A DNA stretch of 33,539 nt from sequence record SRR20825006_1837; one strand, written 5' to 3'. The notes beneath the pieces are model-generated. The model was not told where the DNA came from. It searched no databases and saw nothing but the letters and a program-made list of their open reading frames with translations. Positions 1-31,666 of the stretch are shown one piece after another. A program made the translations under genes and the position numbers. Position 1 is the stretch's first letter. Every line of letters starts with the position of its first letter.

Positions 1-24
1 TACGACGGACTTCCGAGTCCGTCG
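1..24 (+). repeat. REP-like palindrome (GTA-CGAYGGMCT-TCCR-AGKCCGTCG family), 5' end cut by the window edge
   Basis: TA CGACGGACT TCCG AGTCCGTCG: 9-bp perfect stem with 4-nt loop. Same family as 4768-4792, 8465-8489 and 8613-8637. Confidence 0.8.
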
Positions 25-4767: not shown

Positions 4768-4792
4768 CGACGGCCTTGGAAGGCCATCGTAC
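4768..4792 (-). repeat. REP-like palindrome, same family as 1-24
   Basis: Minus strand reads GTA CGATGGCCT TCCA AGGCCGTCG. Lies between the convergent ferredoxin gene and fumC. Confidence 0.8.
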
Positions 4793-4809
4793 TTGGGTTG
4801 TTGGTTTCT

Positions 4810-8425: not shown

Positions 8426-8637
8426 GCAGGATGGTCCCTTAGGCCGTCGACCCTACTCCTGCCAGTACGATGGCCTTCCGAGGCCGTCGAAACGGATCGG
8501 CCGGAAACCTTCAGGTTTTCCCGGAGGTATGCTGCTACGCAACAACCATCTGACATCCCTACCGGGATGAAGAAAGACAGTGGCCGAGCAGAAAAGCGGC
8601 AAGGAATCGCTTCGACGGACTTGGAAGTCCGTCGTAC
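8426..8637. repeat. REP cluster: degenerate copy (8426-8449), + copy (8465-8489) and inverted - copy (8613-8637) flanking a hairpin-rich spacer
   Basis: GTACGATGGCCTTCCGAGGCCGTCG on +, GTACGACGGACTTCCAAGTCCGTCG on -. Fills the convergent gap between the GntP gene and rny. Confidence 0.8.
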
Positions 8638-8656: not shown

Positions 8657-10225
8657 TTATTTGGCCGTGTTGGTGAAACGAGCCTCGCGGACCACGGTGA
8701 CTTTGATCTCACCGGGGTAGGTCAGTTCTTTTTCAAAGGTCGATGCGATGTCGCGGCAGATCGCTGCGGCTCGTTCGTCGCTGACTTGTTGGCTGCCGAC
8801 CATCACTCGCAATTCACGCCCCGCCGAGATGGCATAGGCCTGCTGCACACCATCAAAACGCTGAGCAATCGATTCCAACTCTTCCATTCGCTTGACATAA
8901 CGTTCCAACGATTCGCGACGAGCACCGGGCCGGGACGCACTGCATGCATCCGCGGTTGCGACCAACATCGTGTAGGGAAACTCCGTCACGATTTCGTCGT
9001 GGTGCCCCTTGGCCGCGTGCACCACTTCATCATTCTCCTTGCTGCGACGAAGCAAGTCGGCACCAATCTTCGGGTGCCCACCTTCGAGCTCGTGGTCCGC
9101 GGCTTTTCCGATGTCGTGAAGCAATCCGCAACGACGCGCCAGATCACCATCCAGTCCAATCATCTCAGCCATCATGCCGGCCAAGAATGCGACTTCGACG
9201 CTGTGCCGCAGAACGTTTTGGCTGTACGACGTTCGGAAATGCAATCTTCCAAGCATCTCGATCACACGATCGTGAAGCCCTGACACATTCACTTCGCCAG
9301 CTGCTTCTTGGCCCTTTTGCAAGATAAACGCCTGGATCTCTTTGCCGGCTTGCTCCACCGTCTCTTCAATTTTTGAAGGATGGATTCGACCGTCCGCGAT
9401 TAGTTTCTCAAGTGACATGCGAGCGACCTCGCGGCGGACCGGATCAAAACCACTGACCACGACCACACCGGGGGTGTCATCAATGATCAGGTCCACACCG
9501 GTGGCTTTTTCAAAGGCGCGAATGTTGCGACCTTCGCGACCGATGATGCGGCCTTTCATATCATCGGTTGGCACCCCAACCGTGCTGGTCGTGGTGTCCG
9601 CTGTATGCACCGACGCGTAACGCTGCATCGCGGTGAGCAACATTTCGCGAGCCTGAGCGTCGACACGTCGGCCCAACTCTCGTTGATGCTTCAACACCGT
9701 CGAGCCGATCTCATGCTCGAGATCTTGACGCAACGATTGCATCAACTTCTCTGCCGCTTCCTCCTGGGTCATACCGCTGACCTTTTCAAGTGCTCGCTGA
9801 CTTTCCTGGACCAATCGATCCAATTCAGCACGTTGCTCGGTCAGGTTCCGCATTTGGGCGGCCAATCGCGTTTGGCTGCTTTCTAGACCACGTTGGGCTT
9901 TGCGAAGCGACTCTTGCCCCGACGCGAGTTGATCTTCTCGAGCGTCGAGTTTGCGATCACGGATTTGTTCCGTTTCGCGCATGGCCGCGACCTCACGATC
10001 AGCTTCGGCCTTGATGGCCAATGCTTTTTCGCGAGCGTCGACGATGATTTGATTGCCTCTTGTTTCAGCTTCGCGCCGAGCGGATTCGAGCACCGCTTCG
10101 GCTTCGGCATCAAGCCGTTCTCGGCGTTTGACGGCTTGACGCTGGATGAAGGCCAGAACAGCGGCAATACCGAGGAAAAAGAAGAATAGGCAATAAAGGA
10201 TTGTGGAGGCGAGTTGCGGATTCAT
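8657..10225 (-). CDS. rny: Ribonuclease Y
   Basis: N-terminal TM anchor, coiled coil, KH domain ([14 protein letters not shown]), HD domain ([33 protein letters not shown]) and C-terminal [12 protein letters not shown]. Confidence 0.97.
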
Positions 10226-10238
10226 TAGATTCTCGAAG

Positions 10239-10421
10239 CCGCTTGTTCATCCCAGCCGTGCACCGGTGGTCGAGCAGGTGCAGGACGCCTTGCATCACAC
10301 ATAATCGCGGCGAAACTGGGTTGGCAAAAGGGACGCCAACCGTCGCAACGCGAGTGAACAGCAGATAAATTATCAGCCACATGAGCAAAACGTCCAATGC
10401 GAAGCATGGGATTGAAAGCGG
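10239..10421 (-). ncRNA. Candidate structured RNA upstream of rny (6S RNA-like rod or structured 5' leader)
   Basis: Manual pairing on minus strand: CCGCUU/AAGCGG ends, AUCCCA/UGGGAU, GGACGUUUUGC/GCAAGGCGUCC, and apical UCGCG-GCGA-GGUUGGC/GCCAACC-UCGC-CGCGA. 183 nt; G-U pairs favour the minus strand; homologous to 18296-18347. Confidence 0.5.
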
Positions 10422-10442
10422 TGGTGTTAAGACGGAATCGCG

Positions 10443-10448
10443 AGTGTA
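10443..10448 (-). promoter_or_regulatory. Possible sigma70-type -10 element (TACACT) for the rny leader/ncRNA
   Basis: TACACT on the minus strand just 5' of the structured region. No convincing -35. Confidence 0.3.
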
Positions 10449-10507
10449 ACCGACCCAACTGACGCAGGAAACGGACACGAGCCCCCTTCGACGCTTCCAA
10501 CCATCAA

Positions 10508-11701
10508 ATGATCGGCGACGTGCTTCCAACCACCCCCAACGAGTCGCCCAACTGGCACCGCCTACGCCGTGCAATTCGGTCAACCTGGCCCAACCGTCAT
10601 GGCCGATCATCGGACGTCGCGACGTTGGTTGGATGCAGCGGCGGTGCCGATAGCGTCGCATTGATCCGCCTGCTGGCTGAACTTTGGGCGGAGGAGTCGA
10701 ATGGGCTCAACCCGGCAAACGAGACCGTGACAAAACCCGTTGCGCCGCTGGTCGTGGCACACTGCAATCACGGGCTCCGCGGTGAAGAATCAAATGCCGA
10801 CGAAGCTTTTGTTCGTCAGCTCTGCGATCAGTTGCAGTTGCCTCTCGTCATTCACCATGTTACTCCGCCAAACAACTCCGCCCCAACCGGCCCGGTGAGC
10901 GATGAACGAACGCTTCGGCAGATCCGCCGAGATTTTTTCGAACGCGCGGCCAAGCAACACGGATGCCGTTACGTGGCCGTGGCTCACTCGGCCGACGACC
11001 AAGCCGAGACGATGCTCCACCATTTCATTCGCGGAACCGGCCCGCTGGGATTGGCGGGAATCGCGGAGGCTTCCGAATTGGATACCGACATCGTTGTTCG
11101 TCGACCGCTCCTGCAGGTTCGCCGTGACACTCTGCGAGACGGTCTTCGCGAAATCGGTCAACCATGGCGGGAAGACGCCAGCAACCGACACACGATCTAC
11201 ACCCGCAATTGGATCCGCCACGATGTCCTGCCGCTGATTGAAAGCCGATACCCAAACGCGGTCGAAGCCATTCATCGCGCCGGGGCGTTGCAACATGAGA
11301 TGAACGAAATGGTTCGTCGATTGGCCGAGCGGTGGTTGGAAGCATTCACGGATTTCAGTGGCGATCGCTGGACCATCCATACTGAACGACTGTCGAAATC
11401 AGCCAACCCAGAGAAACGGATGGATGATACAAACGCAGCATGCAACTGGATGATCGAACGACCGGTCATCGTCGCGGCGAGCCAACTGGCCTGGGACCGT
11501 CTCGGTTGGTCTCGCGGATCCATGACGATGCAACACTGGCAACGCCTCTCCGGTCTGATCAACGATCAATCCTGTTGGCACACTTCGGATATTGACGTCT
11601 CGAACGGCCAAGCTGTTGATGAGATCGACCATGGCGGTCACTTTCCCGGCGGCATCTGTCTGTCCGTCGAGGCCAAGCAATTGGTGCTACGAAGCGAATA
11701 G
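10508..11701 (+). CDS. tilS: tRNA(Ile)-lysidine synthetase
   Basis: PP-loop SGGADS, AHCNHGLRG, AHSADDQAET, RRPLL, WREDASN, YTRNWIRHDVLP. Confidence 0.93.
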   Translation: MIGDVLPTTPNESPNWHRLRRAIRSTWPNRHGRSSDVATLVGCSGGADSVALIRLLAELWAEESNGLNPANETVTKPVAPLVVAHCNHGLRGEESNADEAFVRQLCDQLQLPLVIHHVTPPNNSAPTGPVSDERTLRQIRRDFFERAAKQHGCRYVAVAHSADDQAETMLHHFIRGTGPLGLAGIAEASELDTDIVVRRPLLQVRRDTLRDGLREIGQPWREDASNRHTIYTRNWIRHDVLPLIESRYPNAVEAIHRAGALQHEMNEMVRRLAERWLEAFTDFSGDRWTIHTERLSKSANPEKRMDDTNAACNWMIERPVIVAASQLAWDRLGWSRGSMTMQHWQRLSGLINDQSCWHTSDIDVSNGQAVDEIDHGGHFPGGICLSVEAKQLVLRSE

Positions 11702-12013
11702 AGAACGTTTCAATTCCGAGTGCCCAACTCCTTTGGCCACAGCGGCTGAGTGAGTGTTTTGCACCAACGCCTCCGAGAATCGACGTGCATTCTTTGCCAA
11801 ATCGCGAGCCAACGGTTCATCGACACAATCGGTTTGACCGGACCAGTCCCAACAAACCGCTCATCGCGTCATCGGTTTGACTTCTGCAGCACGCAATCGA
11901 CCACTGGAACGTCGCCTCGCGCAAAGCTGAGAGTTACGGTTCCCAAAGGAACCCGCATGAACCGTGCGCGGACCTCCGATTGATTGTTTGCAACCGCGAC
12001 TGGCTGATACCTC

Positions 12014-17062: not shown

Positions 17063-18022
17063 TCAACGGCGAAGCAATCCGTAACGGAAGATGCACCCGA
17101 GTGCGGCGACACCATCACGCCAGCCGATCTTCTTGCCTTCGTCGTACCAACGATGGTGGTAACGAATGGGCCTTTCTGTGAAACGCAAATTTTTGCGAGC
17201 CCAACGCGCAGTCAGTTCGATCTCGATTCCGAACCGGTTTTCTTTCAGCTTCGGCAAAATGTCCAAGAAATTTTCGCGGCGAGCCATCTTGTAGCACGTC
17301 TCCACGTCACTCAGTCGTGGACCAATCGCAACGCTGGCCAACCATGACAGAAAGCCGTTGACGGCTTGGTGCCACCACGGCGAAACCTGACGATCGCAAT
17401 GGCCATATCGAGTACCGTAAACCACGTCGGCTTCACCCGCCAAAAGCGGTTGCAACATCACGCGAAAGTCACCTGGGTCGTACTCGCTATCGGCATCTTG
17501 AATGACAATAACGTCGCCCTGTGCGACTTCGATGGCGGTGCGTATCGCCGCACCCTTGCCGCGATTTTCGGGATGGCGAAGCAACGAGACCTGATGTTCA
17601 TCCTGAAACTGTTTAAGGGCTTCCCCTGATCCATCGTTCGATCCGTCATCGACCACGATGATCTGCATCGGCAGACCGGTGTTGCGTAGCGAGTTGAGCA
17701 CCGACTGGACGGTCGAACATTCATTGTAGACCGGCACGATCACCGACAAACAAAACGCTTCTGGCAGCGGATAGATCGACAGCGCACGACACGCATCCGG
17801 ACCAAGCGTCTGCCGCATTCGCGAAACGTACTCGTCGCTGAACCAGTAACCCGGATCAATGGCTGAATCGACACCCGATGATGCGGGATCCGAATGCGTT
17901 TGAGATTCGTCCGACACAACATCGGAAGACGCGTTCAATTCGTTCACGTTGCGTACACCGGGTGTTGCGGCAATGACGAGACATCGTCGTGTTGATCCGT
18001 GGAACAACCTGTCCGCAACCAA
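17063..18022 (-). CDS. Glycosyltransferase family 2 (polyprenol-phosphate hexosyltransferase-like)
   Basis: LSVIVPVYNE, IVVDDGSNDG, NRGKGAA, IQDADSEYDP, DVETCYK, FGIEIELT, GKKIGWRDG. The true start is probably downstream of 18022. Confidence 0.9.
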   Translation of the reverse strand: MVADRLFHGSTRRCLVIAATPGVRNVNELNASSDVVSDESQTHSDPASSGVDSAIDPGYWFSDEYVSRMRQTLGPDACRALSIYPLPEAFCLSVIVPVYNECSTVQSVLNSLRNTGLPMQIIVVDDGSNDGSGEALKQFQDEHQVSLLRHPENRGKGAAIRTAIEVAQGDVIVIQDADSEYDPGDFRVMLQPLLAGEADVVYGTRYGHCDRQVSPWWHQAVNGFLSWLASVAIGPRLSDVETCYKMARRENFLDILPKLKENRFGIEIELTARWARKNLRFTERPIRYHHRWYDEGKKIGWRDGVAALGCIFRYGLLRR

Positions 18023-18290
18023 GAAAAGGAAACCTGTTAACGCACATCATACGACACTTCGCATCGTCGATGTTGCGACGTCGCAATCACGAATGGCGTT
18101 GAGTTGCTTTCGAAGTTGGTTGACAAAAAAAACTTCACTCGAACGAGTCGCAATTTCCAATGTCAAATCAATCGACCGGTCAACGCGAATGATTTTTTGA
18201 TGACTTTGTTGTTGACATTGATGGTTCACCACGCCAAATTTTCGCTCGCTTGACCCACACATCTTCGATCCCCTCACCACGCTTGTGAGG

Positions 18291-18490
18291 CGGTTGCATT
18301 GGACGTTCTGTTCAACCGATTGTGGTCGATGATTTGTCTCTTCTCACGGAGTGTGTTCGATGCGGTTTGCCAGAGTTCCTCTACAGTCTGTCAAGCACCG
18401 ATCGCCCCACACTTTCTTCGACGTTTCCCCTTGGCAAGCGGGGCCGCCGTCCGACGTCATTTGATTGACTCGGCTATGTTCCATTGACTG
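18291..18490 (+). ncRNA. Candidate ~200-nt structured RNA (6S-like architecture), homologous to the rny-upstream segment
   Basis: Shared blocks at 18296-18314 and 18321-18339. Apical stem GGAGUGUG-CGAU-CGGU-UUG-CAGA/UCUG-CAA-ACCG-AUCG-CACACUUU (18348-18415). A terminator follows directly. Confidence 0.5.
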
Positions 18491-18494
18491 AATC

Positions 18495-18520
18495 ATGGCG
18501 AAGGGCCTCGCCATTTTTTT
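18495..18520 (+). terminator. Intrinsic terminator
   Basis: ATGGCGA-AGGGCC-TCGCCAT stem-loop running into a 7-T tract. Confidence 0.8.
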
Positions 18521-18591
18521 GTTCGTCACAACGATTGTGAACGATTCACGGGAGACGGTTTGGACTCCACATCTTAGCTTCATCGCTTCGA

Positions 18592-18735
18592 TTGACACGG
18601 ACGTCACTCCCTTCATTCATGTTGCCCAACGGTGCTTCTTGATTTCTCTCACGCAATCAAGGTGCATTGATGAACTTGAATTCCGGTCGCCGACAAGGAC
18701 TGTTCGCGTCGGGTAACAATTTGAATTGGTAACAG
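18592..18735 (+). ncRNA. Second candidate structured sRNA in tandem (5' end uncertain)
   Basis: Long hairpin 18615-18681 (core CGGUGC-CUUGAUU/AAUCAAG-GCAUUG), flanking UUGAC-CGGAC/GUUCG-GUCGG pairing, and its own terminator at 18738-18779. Confidence 0.4.
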
Positions 18736-18737
18736 AG

Positions 18738-18779
18738 CGAAGCCAGTCTTGCATGATGCAATACTGGCTTCGTTTTTTT
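18738..18779 (+). terminator. Intrinsic terminator
   Basis: CGAAGCCAGT-c-TTGCA-tga-TGCAA-t-ACTGGCTTCG followed by 7 T. Confidence 0.88.
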
Positions 18780-18880
18780 CTTCTCGCCACCTTTCGCGAC
18801 CACGACTCTCTCTCGTCGCTCGCGAACGATCGCGCCCGCACGATCGCCCCCTCGGGCACTCCACCCCGGAACAACCCGGC

Positions 18881-18931
18881 GCAGATCACGGGCACCCGCG
18901 GATCATGGGCACCCGCAGATCACGGCCACCG
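18881..18931. repeat. 17-bp tandem repeat, three copies
   Basis: GCAGATCACGGGCACCC / GCGGATCATGGGCACCC / GCAGATCACGGCCACCG. Confidence 0.9.
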
Positions 18932-18994
18932 GAACGTTCCTGGCGGTGCCAAATCACCCGCGTGACTGGTCACAAACGTCGCACCCGCGCCCTC

Positions 18995-19024: not shown

Positions 19025-20023
<999 letters not shown>

Positions 20024-30178: not shown

Positions 30179-31666
30179 ATGACCAACGAACGTCCATCAA
30201 CCGAGCGCAAAGCACTTCAAATCAACTTGGATCCGCGACGTTACGGTTCGTTTGCCGAAATCGGCGCTGGACAGGAAGTCGTCCGTTGGTTCTTTCGCGT
30301 TGGAGCCGCTGCTGGCACGATCGCCAAAAGTATGTCGGCCTATGACATGGCGGTCAGCGACGCAATTTATGGCGAATGCCAACGGTATGTTTGCCGACAA
30401 CGCTTGGAAGACATGCTGACCCGCGAACACACATTGAACATCGAACGCCTGAAAGAACAACGCGGCGACTCCACTGCGTTCTTCGCGTTCGCCGACACGG
30501 TTTCCGCTCGCAACTATCACGGAACCAACGAGTGCCACGGCTGGATGGGCATTCGATTCCAAGCACATCCACGTGATGAAGACAGCCAAATCATCATCCA
30601 CGTCCGAATGTTGGACAACAACAACGCGGCTCAACAAGAAGCCCTCGGTATCGTCGGCGTTAACTTGCTGTACGGTGCATTCTTCCTCAATCACGAACCC
30701 GATCAGTTGATCGAATCTTTGCTGGACAATCTCAGCACGCAGCGGATCGAGATCGACATGATCGAATTCTCGGGCATCGCATTTCGACACGTCGACAATC
30801 GTGTGATGAGCCTTCGATTGGTTCAACTGGGACTCAGCAAAGCGGCTATGTTCTCGGCCGATGGCGAAGTCCTTCAACCCGCCGAAGTCCTCTACAAGAA
30901 ACCAATCTTGGTCGAACGCGGCAGCTACCGTCCCGTCACTCACGTGAACATGGACATGATTCAAGCGGCACAAAAAAGCTTCCGCAAAGAAGACGATGTG
31001 GATCCAGACCAAGTCGTGACGCTCGCCGAAATCACAATGCGAAACCTTCGGGCCAATGGTGAAATCGACCTGCAAGACTTCCTTGCTCGCGTCGACACTC
31101 TCGCCGCCTGCGGGATGACTGTGCTGATCTCAGACTACTTCGAGTATTACCGCCTGGCGGCTTATCTGTCGCAGTACACGAAAAAGAAAATCGCGATCAC
31201 GATGGGTGCCGGCAGCCTGCATGAACTGTTCGAAGAGAAGTACTACACGCAACTCGACGGCGGCATTCTTGAATCGTTCGGCCGAATGTTCAAAAACGAC
31301 TTGAAACTTTACGTCTATCCTTTGATGGATCGCGAGACGGGTGAATTGACCACGGTGGAGAATCTGGAAATCGCGCCGGAACTGCGGAAACTCTACGACT
31401 ACTTAGTTGGCAAAGGCTGCATCGAACAACTGCACGCCTACAACCCAGAACACCTCTCAACCTTCTCTCGGGAAGTGTTGAAGATGATTCAATCCGGAGA
31501 TGACGAATGGAAGAAGCACGTTCCACCAGAAGTTGCTTCCGTGATCCAAAAACGTGGTTTCTTCGGATGCAAATCTCACGCACCTGAGTCAAGACTCGCG
31601 GCAATGGTCGCTGCGAACTCGTCCAGCTTTGGAAACATCCCGGCTCCGGTCGGATTCCCTGTCTGA
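30179..31666 (+). CDS. Conserved cytoplasmic protein: CinA-like N-terminal domain plus nucleotidyltransferase (NadD-like) C-terminal domain
   Basis: YGSFAEIGAGQEV..GAAAGTIAKSMSAYD at the N-terminus; ERGSYRPVTHVN at the GSFxPxHxGH position; WKKHVPPEVASVI tail. No signal peptide. Domain calls are by eye. Confidence 0.6.
   Translation: MTNERPSTERKALQINLDPRRYGSFAEIGAGQEVVRWFFRVGAAAGTIAKSMSAYDMAVSDAIYGECQRYVCRQRLEDMLTREHTLNIERLKEQRGDSTAFFAFADTVSARNYHGTNECHGWMGIRFQAHPRDEDSQIIIHVRMLDNNNAAQQEALGIVGVNLLYGAFFLNHEPDQLIESLLDNLSTQRIEIDMIEFSGIAFRHVDNRVMSLRLVQLGLSKAAMFSADGEVLQPAEVLYKKPILVERGSYRPVTHVNMDMIQAAQKSFRKEDDVDPDQVVTLAEITMRNLRANGEIDLQDFLARVDTLAACGMTVLISDYFEYYRLAAYLSQYTKKKIAITMGAGSLHELFEEKYYTQLDGGILESFGRMFKNDLKLYVYPLMDRETGELTTVENLEIAPELRKLYDYLVGKGCIEQLHAYNPEHLSTFSREVLKMIQSGDDEWKKHVPPEVASVIQKRGFFGCKSHAPESRLAAMVAANSSSFGNIPAPVGFPV

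Follow-up and report, generated by a model that had tools for sequence, protein, structure and literature searches.

We found that a stretch of ~270 nt upstream of the malate/lactate dehydrogenase gene (mdh), which we refer to as unit 1, is probably a single-copy, structured, lineage-specific gene for a small non-coding RNA. It lies in a window of 33,539 nucleotides (the whole stretch of DNA analysed here, from sequence record SRR20825006_1837) and is followed head to tail on the plus strand by a second conserved unit, unit 2, each of the two ending in a terminator within the glycosyltransferase-mdh gap. A sequence-only reading of this DNA had described a free-standing, terminator-ended RNA of 6S-like character, and a paralogue of an RNA upstream of rny, the gene for RNase Y. 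The free-standing unit is borne out, as a conserved, non-coding and probably transcribed element; the 6S-like character and the paralogy are not supported, and the rny-upstream sequence appears instead to be the start of an upstream open reading frame.

Genomic context

The genes flanking unit 1 are divergent and have Pfam assignments, and unit 1 thus sits inside the 1053-nt gap between them. The genes and units concerned are as follows.

8657..10225, minus strand: rny (RNase Y); Pfam RNase_Y_N, KH_1, HD
10508-11701, plus strand: PP-loop (TilS-like) gene; Pfam
17063..18022, minus strand: glycosyltransferase, family 2; Pfam PF00535; divergent from unit 1
18122..18249, plus strand: conserved upstream region and putative promoter; identity to orthologues 0.82-1.00
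18250..18520, plus strand: unit 1, candidate ~270-nt non-coding RNA; conservation, X1 contig, covariance model
18521..18782, plus strand: unit 2, structured conserved unit; alignment, consensus fold, RNA-library contigs
19076..20023, plus strand: malate/lactate dehydrogenase (mdh); Pfam Ldh_1_N, Ldh_1_C

An alignment of eight orthologues is near-invariant from ~18120 to 18790; in the same alignment the spacer before the mdh promoter region (18790-18965) is not conserved. As an mdh contig of sequencing run X1 begins at 19051, mdh probably has a 5' end of its own near that position.

Distribution and conservation

The nearest comparison genome was G001 (7.1 Mb; 59% of sampled words in common with the window). 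Full-length matches to 18280-18525, at 80-99% identity, are present in 7 of 23 Rhodopirellula genus genomes, and one further genome of the genus holds a 26-nt fragment only. In a survey of 61 genomes of the family, one per genus, a full match to unit 1 was found in G001 alone, and a second genome gave a match of 21 nt only. A covariance model built on 18291-18420 (model R1) reported one match per genome in seven of the 23 genus genomes searched (E 8e-36 to 2.5e-30), and no second copy in any genome searched with it; unit 1 is single-copy and linked to mdh. The rny-upstream stretch is present in the same seven genus genomes.

Of the regions upstream of mdh in the remaining 16 genomes of the genus, only that of G076 matched an nhmmer profile. 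The match consists of three co-linear pieces, one from the promoter region, one from the long hairpin and one from a motif in the downstream unit; the rny-like block discussed below is not kept at the G076 locus. A search for exact occurrences of a 24-letter motif from the long hairpin H3 recovered three species genomes (Rhodopirellula europaea, a Rhodopirellula MAG and a Planctomycetota MAG) and two marine metagenome scaffolds 97.8% identical to the window. Exact-pattern scans of the genome and metagenome collections yielded no added diversity for covariation. Judged by these sequence searches, unit 1 is confined to the Rhodopirellula baltica/europaea subclade.

Within that range, unit 1 is 0.99 identical to the window in the two nearest genomes and 0.77-0.94 identical in five more distant ones. 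In the same five genomes the identity of unit 2 is 0.78-0.91 and that of four-fold degenerate sites in mdh is 0.60-0.70. Both units are thus more identical than the four-fold sites of the adjacent gene, which indicates that purifying selection acts on both.

Unit 1 appears to be non-coding

The sole long reading frame of unit 1 begins with a TTG at 18320 and runs for 55 codons; it is broken in three of the eight orthologues (8 codons in L017, 33 in L020 and a frameshift in L021). An alternative frame through H3 is open, and by a by-eye tally of the alignment about 5 of its 17 changes are synonymous, as under neutrality. Minus-strand frames in 18250-18525 contain stops even in one 99%-identical orthologue, and the minus-strand ORFs at 18344-18616 and 18617-18895 have no Pfam match. 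We therefore rejected a protein-coding unit 1, in the 55-codon or the H3 frame, on the basis of stops, frameshift and neutral synonymous share. No conserved reading frame was found in the orthologues, and unit 1 is, on this comparison, non-coding.

Transcription, promoter and terminators

Our transcription evidence consists of contigs of four runs (X1, X5, X6 and X9), which give neither strand nor true ends; X1 is an RNA run by guessed label only. One 506-nt X1 contig lies exactly on 18254-18759, at a depth of 32.9, and the X1 contig of mdh, the one starting at 19051, has a depth of 6.1. There is no X1 contig on 17600-18253, an absence of cover that is not evidence of silence. RNA libraries of other studies hold contigs of unit 2 (X6, 18499-18731, identical; X9, 18500-18743). 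The metatranscriptome X5 has contigs across the whole area, including one on 18479-18821, with the flanking genes at similar depth, and one of its contigs (17928-18394) begins inside the glycosyltransferase gene. The region of unit 1 is thus probably transcribed.

The left boundary of the X1 contig falls ~35 nt downstream of a conserved TTGACA at 18212-18217, which we infer to be the -35 element of a unit 1 promoter. A weak -10-like CAAATT follows at 18235-18240; there is no good -10, and a consensus promoter scan called no promoter at 18122..18249. The conserved upstream region opens with an A-tract (18122-18131), which is retained together with ACTTTGTTGTTGACA in the distant G076 locus.

Three features mark the downstream ends of the two units.

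18495..18520, plus strand: terminator T1, intrinsic; 7-bp stem (18495-18514), 6-nt loop and T run; scan
18670-18732, plus strand: candidate 20-codon ORF in unit 2; alignment
18738-18772, plus strand: hairpin of terminator T2, strong, followed by a T run; consensus fold

An intrinsic terminator at the end of unit 1 had already been described from the sequence; the scan calls it as well, and its pairs are kept in the eight orthologues, two with compensatory change. When the window is compared with itself by BLAST, the inverted repeat of T2 gives the top match. Both T1 and T2 are canonical terminators, on the plus strand only, and the assignment of unit 1 to that strand derives from them.

The conservation might alternatively reflect control at the level of DNA (operators or promoters of the glycosyltransferase gene and mdh) or a minus-strand 5' UTR of the glycosyltransferase gene, instead of a plus-strand RNA. 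The X5 contig that begins inside the glycosyltransferase gene would suit such a reading, as would the fact that 18122-18249 is conserved as highly as units 1 and 2; however, the contig of X1 starts at 18254, with none between there and the glycosyltransferase gene, and a near-invariant stretch of ~670 nt greatly exceeds what operators require. The two terminators show covariation and are found on the plus strand only, and mdh apparently has its own 5' end at 19051, past the non-conserved spacer. We regard control at the DNA level, or a glycosyltransferase 5' UTR, as a quite improbable explanation.

Relationship between unit 1 and unit 2

The X1 contig extends across T1, so that termination there may be partial, and unit 1 may not be a separate RNA. 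A cis-acting leader would account for this: a single transcript would run from 18250 to ~18782, with T1 as a regulated attenuator controlling unit 2 and its candidate ORF. The continuity of the X1 contig (18254-18759) over T1 is consistent with a leader, as is the T run of T1, which is interrupted (ATGTTTTT) in five of the eight orthologues and hence weaker, and the conservation of unit 2 equals that of unit 1. Yet the X6 and X9 contigs start at 18499 and 18500, which indicates that the second half can occur on its own; inspection by eye revealed no alternative antiterminator pairing, and there is no riboswitch family match.

The candidate 20-codon ORF points in both directions. It has an ATG/GVG-type start, a TAA/TAG/TGA stop and several synonymous changes, and its length and stop position are kept; the start and stop codons vary in type, with position kept in seven of the eight orthologues. 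However, L021 has no start codon for it, and the G076 locus does not contain it. A second TTGACA, at 18592-18597, is flanked by conserved sequence and could serve unit 2 as a promoter of its own, which would also argue against a leader. We consider a cis-acting leader possible but doubtful.

An invariant hairpin at ~18633-18666 (placed by eye) stands immediately 5' of the candidate ORF. The possibility that units 1 and 2 are tandem duplicates was rejected, as their best local alignment score (21) is at the level of shuffled sequences.

Secondary structure of unit 1

Consensus folding divides unit 1 into the following elements.

18257..18337, plus strand: 5' domain, outer stem 18257-18270 / 18324-18337 around hairpins H1 and H2; consensus folds
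18272-18290, plus strand: hairpin H1; one pair with a C-G to U-A double change in three sequences
18291-18318, plus strand: hairpin H2; changes one-sided only
18338-18347, plus strand: C/U-rich unpaired stretch; consensus fold from 18254
18348..18415, plus strand: long hairpin H3, more conserved than any other element; of its 24 pairs, 21 do not vary among the eight close orthologues

Smaller hairpins occupy the consensus fold between H3 and T1. In G076 the outer stem of H3 is retained, with two compensatory pairs and nine pairs broken.

The fold as a whole comprises 10 helices in separate hairpin domains, and 97.7% of cells in its 82 consensus pairs are paired. Structural covariation is present to a modest extent: four pairs are changed on both sides, against 1.1 +/- 0.9 in column shuffles (2 of 500 shuffles reach four). 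These figures need to be read with caution, as they come from eight close sequences in which most pairs are invariant, and the structure was derived from the same sequences.

The sequence-only reading had drawn a ~200-nt rod with a ~41-nt closing arm within 18291-18520. Folding does not bear this out. The minimum free energy of that interval (-67.8 kcal/mol) matches that of shuffled sequences (-67.25 kcal/mol; z -0.12), and the opposite strand has a z of -0.96. In the consensus ensemble, the mean pairing probability between the rny-like block and the proposed 3' arm (18440-18494) is 0.02, and the hand-drawn closing arm appears only if the real 5' part is omitted from the fold. The predicted fold of unit 1 is thus a series of hairpins, not a rod.

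Unit 1 and 6S RNA

These results bear directly on the suggestion that unit 1 is a 6S-like RNA binding the RNA polymerase holoenzyme, possibly supplying a 6S function that has so far not been found in Rhodopirellula. A passage of PMC5673643 cites Wehner et al. 2014 as finding no 6S RNA in R. baltica and Pirellula staleyi, so that the niche, as far as that passage goes, would be unfilled. The Rfam 6S model (RF00013) likewise had no match at E <= 1 in any of three related genomes (G001, G065 and G074), while it matched in 5 of 14 control genomes. A size in the hundreds of nucleotides and, if X1 depth is a guide, an abundance that may be high relative to mdh would also suit a 6S RNA.

Unit 1 itself, however, gives RF00013 nothing to recognize: there is no match at gathering score in the window, and 6S is not among the matches up to E 10 in 17900-18900. 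No other Rfam family matches unit 1 either (window at gathering score; 1-kb region to E 10). The several hairpins form neither a 5'/3' closing stem nor a central bubble, the stability is that of shuffled sequences, and ~270 nt with a terminator hairpin of its own is longer than a typical 6S RNA. Unit 1 occurs, moreover, in a single genus, in 7 of its 23 genomes, and in none of 60 other genera, and this narrow range is unlike that of a core housekeeping RNA, which would be expected to be broadly conserved. Unit 1 thus resembles 6S RNA only in broad size class and possibly in high abundance, and differs from it in model match, in the rod with central bubble and in distribution. The 6S-like character proposed earlier is contradicted on all three counts, and we consider it very improbable indeed that unit 1 is such an RNA; it does not fill the 6S gap reported for the lineage in that source.

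Likeness of unit 1 to the region upstream of rny

Part of unit 1 resembles a sequence upstream of rny.

18296..18339, plus strand: block like rny upstream; two 19-mers around a 6-nt insertion

The matches described from the sequence proved exact on re-reading. Positions 18296-18314 are identical to the reverse complement of 10382-10400 at 17 of 19 positions, and after a 6-nt insertion (ACCGAT) positions 18321-18339 agree with the reverse complement of 10363-10381 at 15 of 19, giving 32 of 38 in total. All six mismatches are transitions, which is unlikely for random mismatches, at (1/3)^6, and at both loci a TCAC is followed by a long hairpin. The block is also, as had been supposed, not a high-copy repeat: in G001 only these two loci match the half-block patterns with 0 mismatches each, and the remaining matches (11 to the first half and 9 to the second) all have 3. 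That the block is a shared promoter was rejected, since the 6-nt insertion would alter the -35/-10 spacing (by eye).

An explanation by descent would make unit 1 a paralogue of the rny leader that carries a copy of its upstream-ORF initiation region and works in trans, as mimic or decoy, on a factor acting there. Besides the identity and the transitions, the arrangement of the two loci is consistent with this, as they are 8 kb apart and have the same orientation, and the inferred transcript start of each is, as estimated by eye, 40-45 nt away. Read from the TTG at 18320, the block gives (M)WSMICLF, which fits the pattern M-W-x-x-I/L-W/C/Y of the rny upstream ORF. A longer pair of 270 x 245 nt aligns co-linearly over ~115 nt with a score of 47, which was reached by none of 2000 dinucleotide shuffles and none of 5272 real tiles. 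However, the next-best real tiles score 46 and 43, and both come from unrelated places in the same window.

Searches on a wider scale argue against significance, which the earlier proposal had required of the local alignment. With a 65-nt query (18286-18350), BLAST against G001 ranked the rny locus 9th of 17 (E 2.61, 27.4 bits; 73% identity over 44 columns). A self-BLAST of the window lists the block pair at index 69, with most pairs listed twice, so that ~35 distinct pairs score at least as high. Under gap-tolerant Smith-Waterman alignment of the same query, the rny locus scored 39, against 42 at 11817-11863 (minus strand) and 38 near 30.5 kb. Simulated windows reached the rny score in 2, 6 and 5 of 100 cases under three scoring schemes, figures that apply to one chosen query and are uncorrected for scanning the whole window. 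An nhmmer profile of the eight orthologues, run against 394 kb, placed rny loci first (E 0.098-1.4), with a decoy from the window at E 0.29, between the values of the rny loci themselves.

The covariance model is no more favourable. With filters off, model R1 gave the rny locus of the window 7.9 bits (E 2.3, rank 12), behind 11798-11859 on the minus strand (14.9 bits, E 0.048), and at E <= 1 it never reported the rny locus in the 23 genus genomes. Together with the one copy per genome in seven genomes, this leaves the proposed paralogous family without further members. The consensus folds of unit 1 and of the rny leader differ, and substitutions in the two blocks show no co-variation across genomes. 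The unit 1 locus of G076, which lacks the block, has no likeness to its own rny upstream region. By BLAST, nhmmer and covariance model the likeness is therefore indistinguishable from chance. We put true homology between unit 1 and the rny-upstream region, which is not demonstrated, at roughly one chance in three, and the fuller proposal of a paralogous leader acting as mimic or decoy is improbable.

Two further places, 11798-11869 and 30558-30638 (both minus strand), match about as well as rny; their alignments are gap-rich, and we rejected them as family members and treated them as noise-level controls. The first lies in an element at 11798-11890 (minus strand) between the TilS-like gene and an ABC ATPase gene, with arms CAAACCG / CGGTTTG / CAAACCG that allow two mutually exclusive hairpins. 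Its likeness, found by the model at E 0.048 in the window, is to hairpin H2 and the next 14 nt of unit 1.

An upstream open reading frame in the rny leader

The rny side of the comparison is accounted for by a putative coding feature.

10110..10382, minus strand: rny upstream ORF; 90 codons, begins MWLIIYLLF; overlaps the rny start in another frame
10363..10400, minus strand: rny-upstream block; 18 nt before the ATG of the upstream ORF, its first 6 codons and 2 bases of the seventh

This ORF of the window ends 116 nt into rny. In the window, and in 16 genomes of the 23 from the genus, the opening ATG-TGG precedes the rny ATG by 157, 94, 121, 208, 268 or 151 nt, and in two sister genera it does so by 241 and 286 nt; a third sister genus has an ORF in the same frame that starts MFFYLLLIV. 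The sister-genus ORFs were drawn from 27 family loci, of which L098 and L106 were left out as they are cut at contig ends. All eight spacings to the rny ATG (94-286 nt) equal 1 modulo 3. In all 17 sequences the upstream-ORF frame contains 0 stops, compared with mostly 1-5 in the other frames, and it extends 107-161 nt or more into rny; as a caveat on frame conservation, it is also open far upstream. The ORF was seen at loci L039-L050 and L083-L085, that is, in Rhodopirellula and at least three sister genera.

Over its first dozen codons the ORF is hydrophobic, and lineages differ there by synonymous changes (MWPILW..., MWPTIW..., MWLIIY...). In the close group, the body has no codon-position bias (15/18/16 variable sites on the three codon positions), and its synonymous to non-synonymous ratio (12:46) equals that of other frames. 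Only the frame and the N-terminus therefore look selected. We conclude from this frame conservation that the rny-upstream block is most simply read as the start of a frame-conserved ORF, and not as part of a 6S-like or free RNA.

Consensus folding of the rny leader pairs the first half of the block with a sequence ~85-100 nt downstream, so that the ATG of the upstream ORF is enclosed. The partner strand of this long-range helix of 15 pairs (within 10283-10395, minus strand) lies past the long hairpin, and the changes of the helix in the eight orthologues are all of the G-C to G-U type. Upstream, 10430-10470 (minus strand) holds a TACACT box preceded by a conserved CGTTYCC-type motif, kept in most genus sequences among those listed. 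The TACACT box is likely a promoter, with an upstream element that is not sigma-70-like.

Like known regulatory upstream ORFs and leader peptides, the rny ORF has a conserved hydrophobic N-terminus and a variable body, and it retains its frame and its overlap with the downstream start across eight spacings. It differs from them in that no arrest motif was identified and in running 107-161 nt or more into rny, and it is a prediction from sequence. MifM-yidC2 and SecM-secA are examples of leader peptides overlapping the start of the gene that follows. Our literature search found no publication on the rny upstream ORF, which, if the prediction is correct, may control the translation of RNase Y.

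Palindromic repeats in the window

A palindromic hairpin element of ~24 nt, of the type TACGACGG.C.TCC.AG.CCGTCG, occurs in four copies in the window (1-24, 4768-4793, 8464-8489 and 8613-8636). Stem letters change in a compensating manner between copies, which makes the element REP-like. A motif named 'Rhodopirellula-1' is listed in a table of PMC2864571; the palindromic element might be that motif, which may bear on the palindromic repeats or on 6S candidates.

Proposed function and biological implications

Under the reading that we prefer, a small non-coding RNA gene, transcription of unit 1 would start from the promoter with -35 TTGACA at 18212-18217. The RNA would fold into the 5' three-way domain, the C/U-rich single strand (18338-18347) and the hairpin at 18348-18415, and would end at T1. 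This terminator is probably leaky, in which case some transcripts would run on through unit 2 to T2 (~18782). The most likely role is that of a trans-acting regulatory sRNA, which would base-pair with its targets through conserved unpaired segments.

Bacterial trans-acting sRNAs that end in a Rho-independent terminator are the known class that unit 1 most resembles in its intergenic position, single copy, apparent promoter of its own, several hairpins with an unpaired stretch, lack of a conserved ORF and narrow range. It differs from them in that ~270 nt is long for the class, no described family matches it, and a second terminator-ended unit adjoins it, with possible readthrough. Lineage-specific sRNAs are catalogued genus by genus in Rfam. 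Our literature search found no sRNA catalogue or paper for Rhodopirellula; if confirmed, unit 1 would be one of the earliest small RNA candidates to be described in this genus.

A more specific role can be imagined from the likeness to rny. Unit 1 could be an sRNA that carries a diverged copy of the initiation region of the rny upstream ORF (helix arm, start and first codons) and, as a mimic, titrates the factor that sets the synthesis of RNase Y; this factor may be a protein, the ribosome or RNase Y itself. We think it distinctly unlikely that unit 1 works in this way, although, if it did, a decoy RNA would tune the main decay-initiating RNase of the cell.

Thus, the compact arrangement of two conserved terminator-ended units upstream of mdh is a useful but ordinary finding, and the more unexpected by-product of this analysis is the predicted upstream ORF of rny, which suggests that RNase Y may be under translational control.
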